Assembly (NCBI GenBank): GCA_964617125.1 | Contig: CAZTVS010000108.1 | Span: 1-16,274 of the forward strand | DNA length: 16,274 nucleotides | Source of the DNA: an uncultured Acidobacteriota bacterium | Lineage (GTDB): Bacteria > Acidobacteriota > UBA6911 > CAINFC01 | Direction: 5' to 3' | Shown here: piece after piece, positions 5,295-11,236 of the stretch | Position numbering within the stretch: position 1 is the stretch's first letter | Layout: each line of letters begins with the position of its first letter | The notes under the pieces: generated by a model | The model's input: the letters and a program-made list of their open reading frames with translations, nothing else | What the model was told of the DNA's origin: nothing | Database searches by the model: none | Made by a program: the position numbers and the translations under genes

Positions 5295-6857
5295 ATGATG
5301 ATACGAAGCGCTCTAAAATCACTGCTGAAACCGGAAGCATATCCTGAGCCTACCACCAGGGTCGACCTGGTGCAAACTCATGTCTCATGGATATTTCTCA
5401 CCGACACCCATGCCTACAAGATCAAGAAACCGGTTGATTTCGGTTTTCTCAATTTTTCAAGTATAGATCGACGTAGATTCTATTGCAACGAAGAGGTAAA
5501 GTACAATAGGCGTCTTTGCCCCGACATGTACGTGGGAGTCGTGGAACTGCGCAAGACTCCCACGGGCGCCGGTTTTCTGGGAACCGGCCAGATAATAGAC
5601 TATGCGGTCAAAATGAAACGGCTTCCGGCGGAGGGAATGCTTGACCGTCTCATCGGAAACAACGCCGTGTCGGCAGCGGAGCTTCGGGCAGTTGCCCGGA
5701 TGATCGCCGATTTTCACCAGACAGCTCCGACATCGCCCGCCATCTCAGAGTACGGGGGCGTTGACCGCATCCTCCGCATTTGGACTGAAAACTTAGAACT
5801 GACTGTTCCCTTTGAGAGCAGCACCCTTCCGGCGACAGAACGGGAATTGATCAGGGAATGGGTATTCTCGTTCACGGAACGTAATGCCGGCCTGTTTGAA
5901 AGGAGAATCCGGAACGGTTTCATCCGTGAATGCGATGGCGATATCCACCTGGAGAACATCTGCCTGGTCAACGGCGCAATCTACATATTTGATTGCATAG
6001 AGTTCAGCGACCGCTTCCGCTGCTGCGATACCGCCTCGGATCTCGCATTCCTGCTCATGGACCTGGATTTTCACGGTCGCCGTGACCTGACCACGGAAGC
6101 CATGGCAGCCTATCTTGACTCTTCGGGCGATGAGGAGATGTTCGCCCTGCTGGATTTCTATAAGATCTACCGAGCCTTTGTGCGTGGAAAAGTTGAAAGC
6201 CTGAAGGCGATGGACATCGGCATCGACCAGCAGGCCCGCGCTGCGGCCACCCAGAAAGCCGTCAGGTATTTCAGGCTGGCGCGTGGTTATATCGAGCGGA
6301 CCAGGCTTCCGACCACCCTTTTCATAACATGCGGCCTGACGGGCTCCGGGAAAAGCACTCTTGCCGACCAACTCTCCTTCGAACTGGGAATCCCCGCTTT
6401 CAATTCCGATATCATCCGCAAACAGATGGCGGGGATCTCCCCTTTAACGCCGGCCCCTGCCGCTTTCGGTGAGGGAATTTACTCCCCGCAGGCCAATGAA
6501 CAGACCTACGACGAACTTCTGAGACTGGCTGAGCAGGAGATTTCGGCGAGCCGCTCGGTCATAATCGACGCCTGCTTCATCCGCAAAGCCGACCGCGCCA
6601 GGTTCGCGGCAGCGGCGCAGCGCTACGGAGCGCGTTTCGTAATCATGCATGTCTCGTGCAGTGAGGCGATCAACCGGCGCAGACTCAGCGCCCGCTCTGC
6701 GTCGGGCCGATCCGTATCGGACGGCAGGGCGGAAATATTCGGCGTTCAACGCCAGATGTTCGAACCACCGGAAACGGAAGAAGGCCGGATCATACCGGTC
6801 CGTACCGTAACGGCGCCATCAAGGCTTACCAGCATGGTATACGAAAGGCTGGCCTGA
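5295..6857 (+). CDS. Bifunctional kinase: N-terminal aminoglycoside-phosphotransferase-like (APH/protein-kinase-like fold) domain fused to a C-terminal P-loop kinase (AAA_33-like) domain
   Basis: The 520-aa ORF has an APH-type catalytic loop (CDGDIHLENI) and downstream IFDCIEFSDRF...DLAFLLMDLD in the N-terminal half. The C-terminal half has a Walker A motif (GLTGSGKST). The stop at 6857 lies 1 nt before the next ATG. Confidence 0.75.
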   Translation: MMIRSALKSLLKPEAYPEPTTRVDLVQTHVSWIFLTDTHAYKIKKPVDFGFLNFSSIDRRRFYCNEEVKYNRRLCPDMYVGVVELRKTPTGAGFLGTGQIIDYAVKMKRLPAEGMLDRLIGNNAVSAAELRAVARMIADFHQTAPTSPAISEYGGVDRILRIWTENLELTVPFESSTLPATERELIREWVFSFTERNAGLFERRIRNGFIRECDGDIHLENICLVNGAIYIFDCIEFSDRFRCCDTASDLAFLLMDLDFHGRRDLTTEAMAAYLDSSGDEEMFALLDFYKIYRAFVRGKVESLKAMDIGIDQQARAAATQKAVRYFRLARGYIERTRLPTTLFITCGLTGSGKSTLADQLSFELGIPAFNSDIIRKQMAGISPLTPAPAAFGEGIYSPQANEQTYDELLRLAEQEISASRSVIIDACFIRKADRARFAAAAQRYGARFVIMHVSCSEAINRRRLSARSASGRSVSDGRAEIFGVQRQMFEPPETEEGRIIPVRTVTAPSRLTSMVYERLA

Positions 6858-6858
6858 T

Positions 6859-7116
6859 ATGCTGAAGCGACTGCGCCTGATGCTGCTGCATCGTCTGCAA
6901 TTGCGGGAATCATGGATTATCTTCTTCATACTGGGTCTTATCCTGATCAATTTTCCCTTTCTCGGTATCTTCAATAAATCCGAAACGATCCTGGGCATTC
7001 CGCTCCTTTTCCTGTACCTTTTCGTCGGCTGGGGAACATCCATATCCGTGATCTACCTTTTTACCCTGGCTTCCGGCAGCACGGACGCAGCTTCCACGGA
7101 GAAACATCAGCCGTGA
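6859..7116 (+). CDS. Small two-helix membrane protein, DUF4212-like putative small subunit of a sodium:solute symporter
   Basis: The 85-aa ORF has two hydrophobic helices (IIFFILGLILINFPFLGIF and LLFLYLFVGWGTSISVIYLF). It lies immediately upstream of the SSS-domain gene and is translationally coupled to it through a GTGA overlap. This is the usual arrangement for small subunits of SSS transporters. Confidence 0.55.
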   Translation: MLKRLRLMLLHRLQLRESWIIFFILGLILINFPFLGIFNKSETILGIPLLFLYLFVGWGTSISVIYLFTLASGSTDAASTEKHQP

Positions 7117-10100
7117 CCAACGGCCTTATCCAGACCTCGCTGATTACCATGCTCTATACCCTGCTGATCTTCCTGATCGCCTGGTATGCCCATTACCGCA
7201 AAGAAAACGGCCGGAGTATGGTCGCCAATCCGTACATCTATACCCTCTCCATCGCGGTCTACTGCACGGCCTGGACGTTCTACGGCAGTGTCGGCAAGGC
7301 GGCGACAACCGGAATCGATTATCTCCCGATCTATCTGGGTCCTTCCCTCACGGCATTCGCATGGATATTCCTGCTGCGACGCATGATAAGGATCAGCAAA
7401 GAGAACAACGTAACATCCATTGCCGACTTCATCAGCCTGCGCTACGGCAAGTCTCCCTGGCTGGGAGCGCTCGTAACCGTTCTGGCGATTCTGGGCATCA
7501 TGCCCTACATCGCCCTTCAGATCAAAGCGGTGTCCACCAGCTTCCATCTCTTGAGCGGAAACGTTTTTCCGCCTGATTCGATCCCGTTTTCACGCGCCGC
7601 GTACGGCGCCTCGCTCCCTAGCGGCCTCCTCCTTTCCCTGATCCTGTCGCTGTTCGCCGCCATCTTCGGAGCCCGCAGGCTGGTTTCTTCCGAACGTCAC
7701 GAGGGACTCATCGCGGCGATCGCGCTGGAATCCGTGGTGAAACTGGTGTGCCTGCTGGGTGTGGGTATTTTTGTCACGTACTGCCTTAACGACGGATTTG
7801 TTGACATTTTCATGAAGTTTCGACAGTTTAACCCCGTTGACTTCAACCGACTGATGACCATCGGCGCGAGCCGGTTCCCCGGTGACACGGTTCCCCCATT
7901 CACCATGCTGTTCATGTCCATGGGGGCAATAATGCTCTACCCCCGCCAGTTCCACGTCATGGTGATCGAAAACTCCACAGAACGCCATATAGAAAGGGCC
8001 ATGTGGCTCTTTCCGCTCTATCTCTTCCTGATCAACCTTTTCATCATTCCCATTGCCCTGAGCGGCATAATGATCACCGGCACTGCCGATAATGCCGATT
8101 TCTTCGTCCTGAACATTCCGCTCCTGACCGGGCATCGCACCATCGCGACATTGGCGTATCTGGGCGGACTCGCCGCGTCGGCAGGCATGGTCGTGGTTGA
8201 ATCCATCACCATATCCACCATGCTTCTCAACTACATCTTCATGCCGGTCATAGTGCGGCTGAAGCCGCGCAGCTGGTTCCCCCATCTGCTGATCAACCTC
8301 AAACGGTTCGGCATCTTTCTGGTCATCTTCCTGGGATACCTCTACTACCTCTTTGCCGGCAACGCCTTCACCCTCTTCAAACTGGGAATGTTTTCCTTCT
8401 CGGCCATAATCCAGTTCATGCCGGCCGTGCTGGGGGGGGTCTACTGGAAACGCGCCAATCGTACGGGAGCGATCATCGGCATTCTCTCCGGCCTGATCAC
8501 ATGGCTGTACACACTCTTTCTGCCGTCTCTGGGAAACGTCCGCGGGATTCGGTTGGACGCCCTCAACAACGGCCCCTTCAATATATCCCTTCTCAAACCC
8601 ACCGCTCTCTTCGGCCTTACCGGCATGGACCCGTGGAGCCACTGCCTGTTCTGGAGCATGCTTTTCAACATCGGCGGTTATATCGCGTTTTCGATTCTGC
8701 TGACTCAGGATGAGCAGGAGAGGAACCATGTCAGAAAGTTCATCGGCACTTTCGAGACGGAACGTCGCAAGCGCCTCCATGGAGAGACGAGTCGGCTTTC
8801 CAAACCCGTTACCATAACCCAGTTCACCTCCCTGCTGGCAAAATTTATCGGGGACCAGGAAGCAGAGCATGCCATCAACGGCTATATCGGAAACCGGAGC
8901 ATCGACAAGGGCGGCCACATCTCCGAATTCGAGCTTCCGAACCTGAAGCGCTTCACGGAAAAAACCCTTGCCGGATCGGTTGGAGCGGCTGCCGCCGGCG
9001 CCATCGTGGACAGTTATCTGTCGGACATGGGCTCACGCATGGAACTGGTCTACGACATCTTCAGCAACGTGAGGAGTTCCCTGGACCAGAGCCGTGAGGC
9101 CCTGTTTGTCCGCCTCAAGGCCTCGGAGATCATCAATCGCACCCTGGATCTGCGCATCATCATGGATGACCTTCTCGAACTCCTCATGAGGGAATTCAAG
9201 CTCGATCTGGCAATGATCTTCCTCCGGGACAATCAGGGCAATCTCACACTGGCCAGCGCCAGAGACAGAGAAGATAACGCCGCGCCGGCGGGGCAGTGGC
9301 TGAATGAATGCAGGGATGTGTGCGAGATGGTGGCAAACAGAGGCAAATCGTACGTCATCAACGACACATCAACCGATATCCAGGCGGAAGCTTTCCGCTT
9401 TGACTTCCTGGCCAGGGCCGTGTCATACGCCTACATCCCCATTCTGCGGGAGGGAGAGAAATCTCCGGGGATTCTTGCCGTTTTCTCAAATGCAATCCCG
9501 GGCCTCTTTACTGAAGAATTCATCGGACTTCTGGAAAGCCTTGCCGGCCAGCTTGCGCAGGCCATCGCCATCACGCGCGAAATTGAGGCCAAGGAACGGG
9601 AGCGGACCCAGAAAGAGCATGCCCTCATGCAGAACGCCCGTATCAGGCGGGACATGGAGATAGCCCAGCAGATACAGCTCTCCCTTCTTCCGGCAGCACC
9701 GCCACAACTTTTCGGGGTGGAGCTTGAGGGACGCTGCATCTCCGCGGCCCATGTTGGAGGGGACTACTACGATTTTTTCCGGCGTGACGACAACACCGTC
9801 GATATTTTGATTGCGGATGTCTCGGGACACAGTGTGGGAGCGGCGCTAATCATGGCTGAGGCGCGGACCCTGCTCAAACCCCAGATCAACTCGTCCCACA
9901 GCGCTTGCGCCATCCTCAAGCTGCTGAACAACCAGCTTTACGACGACCTCACCCGGGCGGAACTGTTCATCACCATGTTCTACGCCCAATACAACTCCGC
10001 CACCGGACGTCTCTCCTACGCGAATGCAGGCCACAACCGCCCGCTCGTCTGTCGCGAGGGAGAGGGGGACTGCATCCAGCTGGATGCCGAAGGGCTCATA

Positions 10101-10370
10101 ATCGGCGTCAGGCCGACCGTTGTTTTTGAAGAGCGAAGCATAGAACTCGTGCGGGGTGATGTGGTATTATTCTATACCGACGGCCTGATCGAAGCCACAA
10201 ATCCCGGGGGGGAACAGTTCGGAATTCAGAGAATCTGTTCAAGGTTGAGGGAATTTCGCGATCTCACAGCAAAGGAGATCATAGACTCATTGTACTCATC
10301 AGTGTCGGAGTATACCGGTCTTGGCGCCTATCAGGACGACATCTCCCTGGTGATACTGAAGATTCTCTGA
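7113..10370 (+). CDS. Membrane sensor phosphatase: sodium:solute-symporter (SSS) domain, GAF domain and PP2C/SpoIIE-type serine phosphatase (RsbU-like)
   Basis: The 1085-aa ORF starts with a GTG at 7113. Residues 1-520 are polytopic membrane and SSS-like (YGSVGKAA..GIDYLPIYLG, multiple TM helices). Residues 660-830 form a GAF-like fold (LDLRIIMDDLLELL...LDLAMIFLRD). The C-terminus carries PP2C motifs (GGDYYDFF, ILIADVSGHSVGAAL, FYTDGLIEA, DDISLVIL). Confidence 0.85.
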   Translation: MTNGLIQTSLITMLYTLLIFLIAWYAHYRKENGRSMVANPYIYTLSIAVYCTAWTFYGSVGKAATTGIDYLPIYLGPSLTAFAWIFLLRRMIRISKENNVTSIADFISLRYGKSPWLGALVTVLAILGIMPYIALQIKAVSTSFHLLSGNVFPPDSIPFSRAAYGASLPSGLLLSLILSLFAAIFGARRLVSSERHEGLIAAIALESVVKLVCLLGVGIFVTYCLNDGFVDIFMKFRQFNPVDFNRLMTIGASRFPGDTVPPFTMLFMSMGAIMLYPRQFHVMVIENSTERHIERAMWLFPLYLFLINLFIIPIALSGIMITGTADNADFFVLNIPLLTGHRTIATLAYLGGLAASAGMVVVESITISTMLLNYIFMPVIVRLKPRSWFPHLLINLKRFGIFLVIFLGYLYYLFAGNAFTLFKLGMFSFSAIIQFMPAVLGGVYWKRANRTGAIIGILSGLITWLYTLFLPSLGNVRGIRLDALNNGPFNISLLKPTALFGLTGMDPWSHCLFWSMLFNIGGYIAFSILLTQDEQERNHVRKFIGTFETERRKRLHGETSRLSKPVTITQFTSLLAKFIGDQEAEHAINGYIGNRSIDKGGHISEFELPNLKRFTEKTLAGSVGAAAAGAIVDSYLSDMGSRMELVYDIFSNVRSSLDQSREALFVRLKASEIINRTLDLRIIMDDLLELLMREFKLDLAMIFLRDNQGNLTLASARDREDNAAPAGQWLNECRDVCEMVANRGKSYVINDTSTDIQAEAFRFDFLARAVSYAYIPILREGEKSPGILAVFSNAIPGLFTEEFIGLLESLAGQLAQAIAITREIEAKERERTQKEHALMQNARIRRDMEIAQQIQLSLLPAAPPQLFGVELEGRCISAAHVGGDYYDFFRRDDNTVDILIADVSGHSVGAALIMAEARTLLKPQINSSHSACAILKLLNNQLYDDLTRAELFITMFYAQYNSATGRLSYANAGHNRPLVCREGEGDCIQLDAEGLIIGVRPTVVFEERSIELVRGDVVLFYTDGLIEATNPGGEQFGIQRICSRLREFRDLTAKEIIDSLYSSVSEYTGLGAYQDDISLVILKIL

Positions 10371-10411
10371 GCTTCTTTTATCCGTAGCAAATGATCGGAT
10401 CAACCATCTGT

Positions 10412-10420
10412 TGTTATAAT
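10412..10420 (+). promoter_or_regulatory. Candidate extended -10 element (TGtTATAAT), possible internal promoter for the STAS/kinase genes
   Basis: A perfect TATAAT at 10415-10420 is preceded by TGt (10412-10414). It sits 23 nt upstream of the ATG at 10443 and 40 nt downstream of the phosphatase stop. No good -35 is present, which is typical of extended -10 promoters. Confidence 0.35.
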
Positions 10421-10442
10421 GAACTGCCATAAAGGAGTGAAC

Positions 10443-10778
10443 ATGAACCTGAAGATTGAAGCGGTCGGCAGCCGCATGATTATCGCCGTACAGGAAGAGA
10501 GGCTTGACGCCCACAACTCCGACGAGTTGAAGACCGAAATGAACAGGCTTTTCTCCGAGGGGGCGAAGGATCTGATCCTAGACCTCAAGGATGTGCGTTT
10601 CATTGACAGTTCAGGGCTGGGAGTACTGGTTTCCGGATTCAAGAACGCCTCGACCCGCCAGGGTTCTCTCAAGCTCGCGGGACTGCAGACGCAGGTGAGA
10701 TCGATGTTTGAACTGACCCGGCTGCACCGCGTCTTTGACATCTTCCAGACAACTGACGAGGCGCTGGACAGTTATTAA
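10443..10778 (+). CDS. STAS-domain anti-sigma-factor antagonist (RsbV/SpoIIAA-like)
   Basis: The 111-aa protein starts at the ATG at 10443, which has a strong SD (AAAGGAG, 10431-10437). The track ORF start at 10419 lies inside the -10 box. It carries the conserved phosphorylatable serine motif (FIDSSGLGVLV) and has typical STAS length. Its stop overlaps the next start (TAATG). Confidence 0.85.
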   Translation: MNLKIEAVGSRMIIAVQEERLDAHNSDELKTEMNRLFSEGAKDLILDLKDVRFIDSSGLGVLVSGFKNASTRQGSLKLAGLQTQVRSMFELTRLHRVFDIFQTTDEALDSY

Positions 10779-11236
10779 TGAATAGTTTCAGTCTGAGCGG
10801 GCAATTCATGAAAAATGAAATCGAGATCAACATCAGAGTACCCAATCAGACGCGCTACCTGAGCCTTATCGGAAGGATCGGCGAATACATGGCGCGGGAA
10901 GCCTGCAGGCTGCCGGATGACAGGGAGTCCCTGGCATTCAACATGAACGTGGTGCTTACGGAGGCCATGACCAACGCCATAAAACATGCAAACGCGGCAG
11001 ACCCGAACAAGGAGGTCCAGATCTGCATCAGGATATCAAAGGACGAGCTTGATATCATGGTATACGACAGCGGCCAGGGATTCGATCTCAATGCGATTCC
11101 CTGGCCGAAGTTCGATTCCGACTGCCTGGATGAAGCCGGCCGAGGAATCTTCATCATCAGATCCCTGATGGACTCGGTGGTATACGAGAAGGCGGATGGC
11201 GGCAACGTACTGAGGATGAAGAAGGGCCTGAGGTAA
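10778..11236 (+). CDS. Anti-sigma regulatory factor / serine protein kinase (RsbW/SpoIIAB-like, GHKL HATPase_c)
   Basis: The 152-aa ORF has an N-box (EAMTNAIKHA), a G1 box (DSGQGFD) and a G2 box (GRGIFIIRSLMD). Its size and its position after a STAS gene are typical of partner-switching kinases. Confidence 0.8.
   Translation: MNSFSLSGQFMKNEIEINIRVPNQTRYLSLIGRIGEYMAREACRLPDDRESLAFNMNVVLTEAMTNAIKHANAADPNKEVQICIRISKDELDIMVYDSGQGFDLNAIPWPKFDSDCLDEAGRGIFIIRSLMDSVVYEKADGGNVLRMKKGLR

Follow-up and report, generated by a model that had tools for sequence, protein, structure and literature searches.

A conserved two-helix membrane protein is encoded directly upstream of SLC5-domain sensors of differing output and is probably their accessory subunit

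Small membrane proteins encoded 5' of sodium:solute symporter (SSS) genes include the DUF4212/TIGR03647 (VC_2705-type), DUF485 (YjcH/ActP), and DUF997 (YhdT/PanF) proteins. The subject of this report is an open reading frame (ORF) of 85 amino acids (aa) in a stretch of 16,274 nucleotides (nt), called here the window, which comprises positions 1 to 16,274 of contig CAZTVS010000108.1 (assembly GCA_964617125.1, an uncultured Acidobacteriota bacterium). The ORF lies immediately 5' of, and overlaps, the gene of a 1085-aa sensor with an SSS-type (SLC5) membrane domain. The closest known system is CbrX/CbrA. The cbrX gene encodes a 58-aa protein of two helices and shares 17 nt with cbrA. The two genes are translationally coupled, and CbrA is produced only if cbrX is translated (PMC6591292). 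The CbrX peptide co-purifies with CbrA, and in the cryo-electron microscopy structure of 2026 it forms a hairpin, with its N- and C-terminus both cytoplasmic, placed against transmembrane helices 3 and 8 (TM3/TM8) of the SLC5 domain (PDB 10ed; PMC13488458). Growth on histidine does not require the peptide, and AlphaFold dimer models put CbrX at the CbrA dimer interface (PMC13488458).

Our analysis indicates that the 85-aa protein probably is translated along with the sensor and acts as an accessory subunit of its SLC5 domain, to which it would bind. The original prediction had drawn an analogy with small ORFs upstream of cbrA-type kinases, and this proved apt: cbrX overlaps cbrA and is coupled to it, CbrX is bound to CbrA, and the SLC5 domain of the window sensor is a homologue of that of CbrA (E = 3.7e-74). 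The two systems share a small two-helix peptide ORF that immediately precedes and overlaps an SLC5-domain sensor gene, homologous membrane domains in which the Na2-site lysine and several pocket residues are kept, and a hairpin with both termini cytoplasmic, a topology that is predicted for the window peptide. They differ in the length of the peptide (85 aa vs. 58 aa) and of the overlap (4 nt vs. 17 nt). The window peptide belongs to a different sequence family, with a motif of its own and no significant direct match to CbrX. The sensors differ as well: CbrA has a PAS-HisKA-HATPase output that acts on CbrB, whereas the window sensor has a GAF-PP2C output directed to a STAS/RsbW switch and resembles CrbS-like and other SLC5 sensors more than it does CbrA. 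Finally, CbrX has been seen bound in a structure and its coupling was established by experiment, whereas for the window peptide binding and coupling are predicted, the coupling from the geometry of the genes and from an internal Shine-Dalgarno (SD)-like motif.

The small ORF extends over positions 6859..7116 of the + strand, starts with ATG, and encodes a protein with two hydrophobic segments, a short polar loop, and a basic N-terminus (K3, R4, R6, H11, R12, and R16), which suggests that the N- and C-termini are both cytoplasmic. An AlphaFold2 model made with the family alignment as input gave a helical hairpin (helices 2-37 and 49-72; mean predicted local distance difference test score, pLDDT, of 80), in agreement with the two helices that had been proposed from the sequence. 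A Foldseek search of the model against PDB returned no matches, as expected for a small hairpin and with a library that extends to April 2026 and may lack 10ed. The gene was predicted by independent gene callers on four metagenome contigs. A search of a large protein collection recovered 289 homologues from Geobacteraceae/Desulfuromonadales, unnamed and almost all of 84-86 aa. Among 31 sampled homologues 22 positions were invariant; P33, F38, G46, P48, Y53, and W58 are among the invariant residues of the family alignment. The pairwise divergence at the three codon positions was 0.32/0.16/0.57 among 80 gene copies (79 orthologues and the window's own), a pattern that indicates purifying selection on the reading frame. 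Our results show that 6859..7116 is a real gene under purifying selection, and that its conservation is far above chance expectation.

The TGA stop of the small ORF (7114-7116) shares two letters with the GTG start of the sensor gene (7113-7115), so that the junction reads GTGA (7113..7116, + strand); the coordinates and the overlap are as originally described for an 85-aa, two-transmembrane-segment ORF abutting a 1085-aa gene. The start of the sensor at this GTG is supported by orthologue alignments that begin at residue 1 and by a start codon kept at the overlap position. An SD-like GGAG (7098..7101, + strand), situated within the 3' end of the small ORF and 11 nt 5' of the GTG, could serve the sensor; the small ORF has its own GAAAGG, which ends 10 nt 5' of the ATG. 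The junction has the geometry expected for termination-reinitiation, and we infer that the two genes are coupled in this way.

The arrangement is conserved. A scan of species-representative genomes with the small ORF identified 80 loci, each from a species-level genome of Geobacterales/Desulfuromonadales, of which 78 were informative. In 78/78 a full-length sensor orthologue (44-74% identity) was encoded directly downstream of the small-ORF homologue. The junctions were GTGA in 42 loci, ATGA in 18, and TTGA in two; four had a 1-nt overlap and 12 a gap of 0-21 nt. The 4-nt NTGA overlap is thus kept in 62/78 orthologous loci; in the remaining 16 the genes share 1 nt or lie at most 21 nt apart. 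The synteny that was to be checked in relatives was found in every informative locus, and the tight coupling of the small ORF to an SSS/SLC5-domain gene holds as gene linkage. In 37/63 loci, the window's own included, 4 nt or more of SD-like sequence stood 4-13 nt 5' of the overlapping start. We also observed that the conserved C-terminal E-x-x-Q-P of the small protein (7090..7116) overlies the SD-like GGAG/AGGAG and the sensor start; conservation there may reflect an RNA signal as much as the peptide.

The family to which the small protein belongs is much larger than this group of orthologues. A profile search of 1.84 billion cluster representatives yielded 779 small proteins at E <= 1e-3, with the motif N-[FY]-P-[FL]-L-x-I-F-N-x(5,6)-G-x-P-L-x(3)-Y-x(4)-W, which is recognizable in several proteobacterial classes, in Desulfuromonadales, and in one further cultured genome. 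The 85-aa query matched no Pfam or NCBIfam model, scans of 31 close relatives likewise assigned no curated family, and the 149 wider relatives that were scanned are not covered by Pfam either. Members of the family are encoded directly 5' of SLC5-domain histidine kinases in metagenomes and one cultured genome (loci L087, L105, and L108) and on plasmid 1 of Paracoccus denitrificans PD1222, 5' of an SLC5 protein annotated as EAL domain-containing in Azoarcus KH32C (pAZKH), and 5' of a sensor in Cupriavidus necator N-1. The members from Azoarcus, Paracoccus, and Cupriavidus and those linked to SLC5 histidine kinases scored 64-87 bits against the family profile.

A metagenome scan with the proteobacterial sub-alignment of the family gave 80 further loci, 75 of them informative, and an SLC5 sensor gene was found directly 3' of the family member in 73/75. 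Complete downstream sensors were available in 33 cases, and comprised 26 HisKA/HATPase kinases and seven GGDEF-EAL proteins. The sensors paired with the family are the nearest relatives of the SLC5-linker module of the window sensor (470-514 bits over aa 10-690). As the family stands beside sensors that differ in output and are the nearest relatives of this module, the small protein travels with the membrane module and not with the output. The family accompanies the SLC5 module whether the output is a histidine kinase, a GGDEF-EAL protein, or a PP2C phosphatase.

Three loci deserve separate mention. In L140 (4456-4965), one of the two exceptions in the metagenome set, the family member is followed only by an 81-aa ORF for the last, C-terminal part of an EAL domain; here an SLC5-GGDEF-EAL gene has apparently lost an internal segment, or else the contig may be misassembled. 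In L085 (3064-3372) an orphan member of 102 aa (P0135) overlaps the end of dnaB, with fdhD downstream on the opposite strand and no SLC5 gene nearby. In Paracoccus ferrooxidans pFER4 (L095, 2664-2906) a different 80-aa ORF with two hydrophobic segments, which scored 8 bits against the family profile, overlaps by 11 nt the gene of an SLC5-domain protein of 885 aa whose only annotation is 'sodium:solute symporter'. This ORF may be a third type of partner peptide.

The window sensor (7113..10370, + strand; 1085 aa) comprises, according to Pfam, a PDB match, and linker homology, an SLC5/SSS domain (approximately aa 4-484), a linker (approximately 485-650), a GAF domain (678-819), and a PP2C/SpoIIE domain (892-1084). 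The two last domains were identified by Pfam. The N-terminal 480 residues fell below the Pfam SSF model, and aa 4-484 matched the CbrA SLC5-STAC chain (PDB 10ed_A) with E = 3.7e-74. Matches of the SLC5 domain to NCBIfam were weak and concerned MctP (3e-9) and the VC_2705 large subunit (4.8e-7). Residue K210 corresponds to the Na2-site lysine of CbrA (K196) and is invariant in 40 SLC5 sensors, which include kinase, GGDEF-EAL, PP2C, CrbS-type, and CbrA-type proteins. The CbrA pocket residues Y51, W55, Y75, and F406 are kept in the sensor, with the substitutions S53T, A56T, F71Y, and F248S elsewhere in the pocket. These residues suggest that the SLC5 region (aa 1-484, 7113..8560) is a proton-coupled ligand-binding domain whose ligand is other than that of CbrA.

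Five other SLC5 sensors carry a homologue of the linker (aa 485-680) in the equivalent place (E 1e-16 to 6e-23), and so does CrbS, at residues 489-628 (E = 1e-5); this is the position of STAC in this family of sensors. Its match to CbrA 520-580 was marginal (E = 0.28), and the linker alone found no sequence match in PDB, STAC included. Compared with the 470-514 bits of the sensors paired with the family, the SLC5-linker module scored 368 bits against Pseudomonas aeruginosa CrbS and 201 bits against CbrA. The beginning of the GAF region (aa 666-696, 9108..9200) is nearly identical to PDB 2qyb ('Membrane protein, putative', 181 aa), a Geobacter GAF domain, so that the GAF structure of a close homologue has apparently already been solved.

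The partner of the small ORF is not a cbrA-type kinase, as the original prediction had suggested by its comparison. We considered the sensor as a histidine kinase and rejected this, as Pfam assigned it a GAF plus SpoIIE/PP2C output, which would feed a STAS/RsbW-like partner switch. The gene downstream (10419..10778, + strand) encodes a STAS-domain protein of the anti-sigma-factor antagonist type (Pfam STAS, 2.8e-21), the presumed substrate of the PP2C domain; a STAS gene was found 3' of the sensor in 67/67 orthologous loci with the downstream region recovered. It is followed by a gene of conserved synteny (10778..11236, + strand) for an RsbW/SpoIIAB-like serine kinase or anti-sigma factor (Pfam HATPase_c_2, 2e-25). 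By its domains and synteny, the segment 7113..11236 is best described as a partner-switching module with a transporter-like input, conserved across Geobacterales/Desulfuromonadales. No sigma factor or other target of the switch is present within the 7113..11236 cluster. The presence of a GAF-PP2C phosphatase, a STAS protein, and a HATPase_c_2 kinase in one conserved cluster is as in modules of the RsbU/SpoIIE type; unlike in these, an SLC5 membrane domain accompanied by a small peptide takes the place of RsbT or the stressosome as input. SSS-GAF-PP2C architectures in Actinobacteria are mentioned in one review (PMC7918813). Our literature search did not find a description of this small-protein family or of an SLC5-PP2C partner switch.

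To compare the family with CbrX we used the P. putida protein as it stands in PDB (chain 10ed_X) together with an orthologue encoded on a plasmid of Amphritea. The resulting CbrX profile was shallow (seven sequences), and a homology search seeded with the Amphritea protein gave only five close relatives. By hmmsearch, the family and CbrX matched with 10.8-11.7 bits, and in a search of PDB the CbrX match had E = 2.1 and rank 6 of 177,635 sequences. Profile-profile alignment (hhalign) with this shallow CbrX profile gave a probability of 58.8% and a score of 26.8, and placed the near-invariant P48 and W58 of the family opposite P35 and W39, which are invariant in CbrX. In the hhalign controls, reversed alignments scored 12-15 overall and 14-15 for DUF3311, and 40 column shuffles scored at most 15.8 for CbrX and at most 20.6 for DUF3311. 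A kinship of the family with CbrX is plausible on these alignments. Chain X of 10ed (CbrX) is named 'MFS transporter' in PDB, and this label is apparently wrong.

The small subunits of SSS transporters were examined in the same way. The original prediction had proposed a subunit of the DUF4212 or DUF485 type, and this identity was not supported. The query had no match to DUF4212 (PF13937) or TIGR03647 at E <= 1; among its 31 relatives DUF4212 appeared below threshold in 3/31 (best E = 0.0017) and TIGR03647 in 0/31, and the 149 more distant relatives had no DUF4212 match at E <= 0.01. DUF485 (PF04341, YjcH-like) did not match the query either, and one of the 31 relatives matched it at E = 0.077. 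The window family thus differs from DUF4212, TIGR03647, and DUF485 proteins in having no significant model match, and DUF997 was absent among the matches listed at the thresholds used. One relative, P0095 from Pelotalea chapellei, carries the UniRef label 'DUF4212 domain-containing protein' and has no DUF4212 match in current Pfam; this label is apparently wrong. DUF2304 appeared below threshold in 17/31 relatives.

DUF3311 (PF11755) gave a different result. It is the product of a small gene upstream of mctP (PMC9100948), the gene of a monocarboxylate SSS permease, and our literature search found no function for it and no physical interaction with the transporter. The query did not match DUF3311, and 15/31 relatives did so below threshold, with 11-18 bits (best E = 0.004), where the Pfam gathering score is 30 bits and the positive control, S. 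fredii NGR_RS10970, scored 64 bits. These sub-threshold matches always fell in one constant register. The hhalign comparison of the family with DUF3311 gave a probability of 84.5% (the usual confidence level is 95%), P = 7e-6, and a score of 35.5 over 62 columns, well above the controls, and the near-invariant P33, G46, P48, and Y53 of the family were aligned with the invariant P17, G28, P30, and Y35 of DUF3311. A direct profile comparison of CbrX with DUF3311 gave nothing. These profile similarities are suggestive, and we regard a kinship of the family with DUF3311 as likely. In both cases, a small two-helix protein is encoded directly upstream of a gene with the SSS fold; the partner of DUF3311 is a plain transporter without signalling domains, whereas the SSS-fold gene beside the window family carries them, and most members of the window family have no Pfam DUF3311 match at all. 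The broader proposal that the sensor keeps a transporter-type small subunit therefore gained some support from the DUF3311 profile similarity, whereas the subunit types named for it were not matched.

We infer the following series of events for the window, from translation and coupling of the small ORF to its binding, its binding site, its effect on signalling, and every step of the phosphatase pathway. The small ORF would be translated, and the ribosome would end at GTGA and restart at the sensor GTG, aided by the internal GGAG. Coupling would provide matched amounts and co-insertion of the small protein and the sensor. The hairpin would insert in the inner membrane alongside the nascent SLC5 domain, both termini probably remaining in the cytoplasm, and would dock on the lipid-facing surface of this domain, in the manner of CbrX at TM3/TM8 of CbrA. 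In this position it may stabilize the sensor module, aid dimerization, or tune the conformational cycle. The SLC5 domain would pass its ligand or transport state through the linker and the GAF domain to the PP2C phosphatase. Dephosphorylation of the STAS protein by this enzyme would in turn change the state of the RsbW-like partner switch.

Several observations weigh against a subunit role. A natural fusion of the small protein to an SLC5 sensor was not found in 160 loci. The SLC5 sensors of the CrbS/RpuS type have no hairpin ORF upstream (plasmid and chromid loci L092, L094, and L096-L103, and L091 on S. fredii pNGR234b). In their SLC5 domains these sensors resemble the window sensor more than CbrA does. 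The SLC5 sensor fold is not strictly dependent on a partner, which this clade has either lost or never acquired. In the proteobacterial subfamily the small gene and the sensor gene are split by short gaps with no overlap, so the start/stop overlap is not universal. The similarity to CbrX is weak at the sequence level, and the binding mode is extrapolated to that extent. The role of the subunit may also be subtle or dependent on conditions.

The main rival to an accessory subunit is a pure leader, in which translation of the small ORF delivers ribosomes to the weak GTG of the sensor and the peptide itself has no function. What is known of cbrX can be read in this way, as blocking its translation abolishes CbrA production (PMC6591292) and the CbrX peptide can be dispensed with for growth on histidine (PMC13488458); the sensor start in the window is also a GTG within the overlap. 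A functionless peptide, however, would not be expected to keep 22 invariant positions in 31 sequences and a motif shared across divergent lineages, nor to show the codon-position divergence reported above, and the structure of CbrA contains bound CbrX. The conservation of the peptide, together with the persistence of the family where the overlap is lacking and only a short gap separates the genes, disfavors the leader explanation, which we consider unlikely.

It could also be that the small protein is independent of the sensor, a stress or holin-like peptide carried beside it in the operon. The orphan that follows dnaB with no SLC5 gene nearby (P0135) and the lack of fusion proteins in the loci surveyed would fit such a hitch-hiker. 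A linkage of 78/78 and 73/75 in very divergent lineages and with three types of output is not expected from hitch-hiking, and the junctions are overlapping or very short; we regard this alternative as very unlikely. A DUF4212/DUF485-type subunit of what is chiefly a two-subunit sodium:solute symporter appears to us very improbable. It can draw on the weak NCBIfam matches of the sensor to MctP and to the VC_2705 large subunit, on the UniRef label of P0095, and on the three sub-threshold relatives. It is opposed by the query, which matches neither PF13937 nor PF04341, by the lack of TIGR03647 in the 31 relatives, by P0095 itself, which current Pfam leaves unmatched, and by the 0/149 result among the wider relatives, while the weak similarity that does recur goes to DUF3311. 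Moreover, a signalling output domain was present in each of the downstream partners that were examined. An accessory subunit of the sensor domain is the reading that we prefer.

Upstream of the small ORF, a gene at 5295..6857 (+ strand) encodes a 520-aa protein that combines APH-like and AAA_33 P-loop kinase domains (Pfam), and its stop lies 1 nt 5' of the small-ORF ATG (TGAtATG). This gene was upstream in 38/80 orthologous loci, and in 34 of the 67 loci that also had the STAS and kinase genes. As it is syntenic in about half of the orthologous loci, it is a variable neighbor outside the core module. A promoter/terminator scan found no promoter-like sites on the + strand of the scanned region, and no terminator-like sites from the 520-aa gene through the small ORF to the sensor start.

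Systems of the CbrX/CbrA kind are already known from the demonstration of coupling in 2019 and from the 2026 structure of the complex. Three features appear to be new: a distinct, large, and uncurated family in this position for a major clade of SLC5 sensors, its independence of output, including the GAF-PP2C partner-switch variant, and its likely link, drawn from profile comparison, to the small-subunit family of true SSS transporters. CbrX-like partners are not confined to Pseudomonas; they extend to several proteobacterial classes, Desulfuromonadales, and at least one further cultured genome. The occurrence of the family with three outputs (histidine kinase, GGDEF-EAL, and PP2C) suggests that its function is tied to the membrane module, for example in assembly, dimerization, or gating, and not to kinase chemistry. 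This bears on how SLC5 'transceptors' such as CbrA convert transport or ligand state to a signal, and on the role that CbrX plays in the complex.

The family may, more speculatively, be an evolutionary bridge from the small subunits of true SSS transporters (DUF3311/MctP) to CbrX, an idea that we hold as tentative. A two-helix beta-subunit would then have been inherited when SLC5 transporters became sensors, and kept as an output-independent component of the 'transceptor', where the hairpin could form a dimer interface or gate the conformational signal. The family defined here, which stands outside Pfam and NCBIfam, supplies many new systems for probing the function of these partners, and its similarity to DUF3311 suggests that they descend from the small subunits of transporters.

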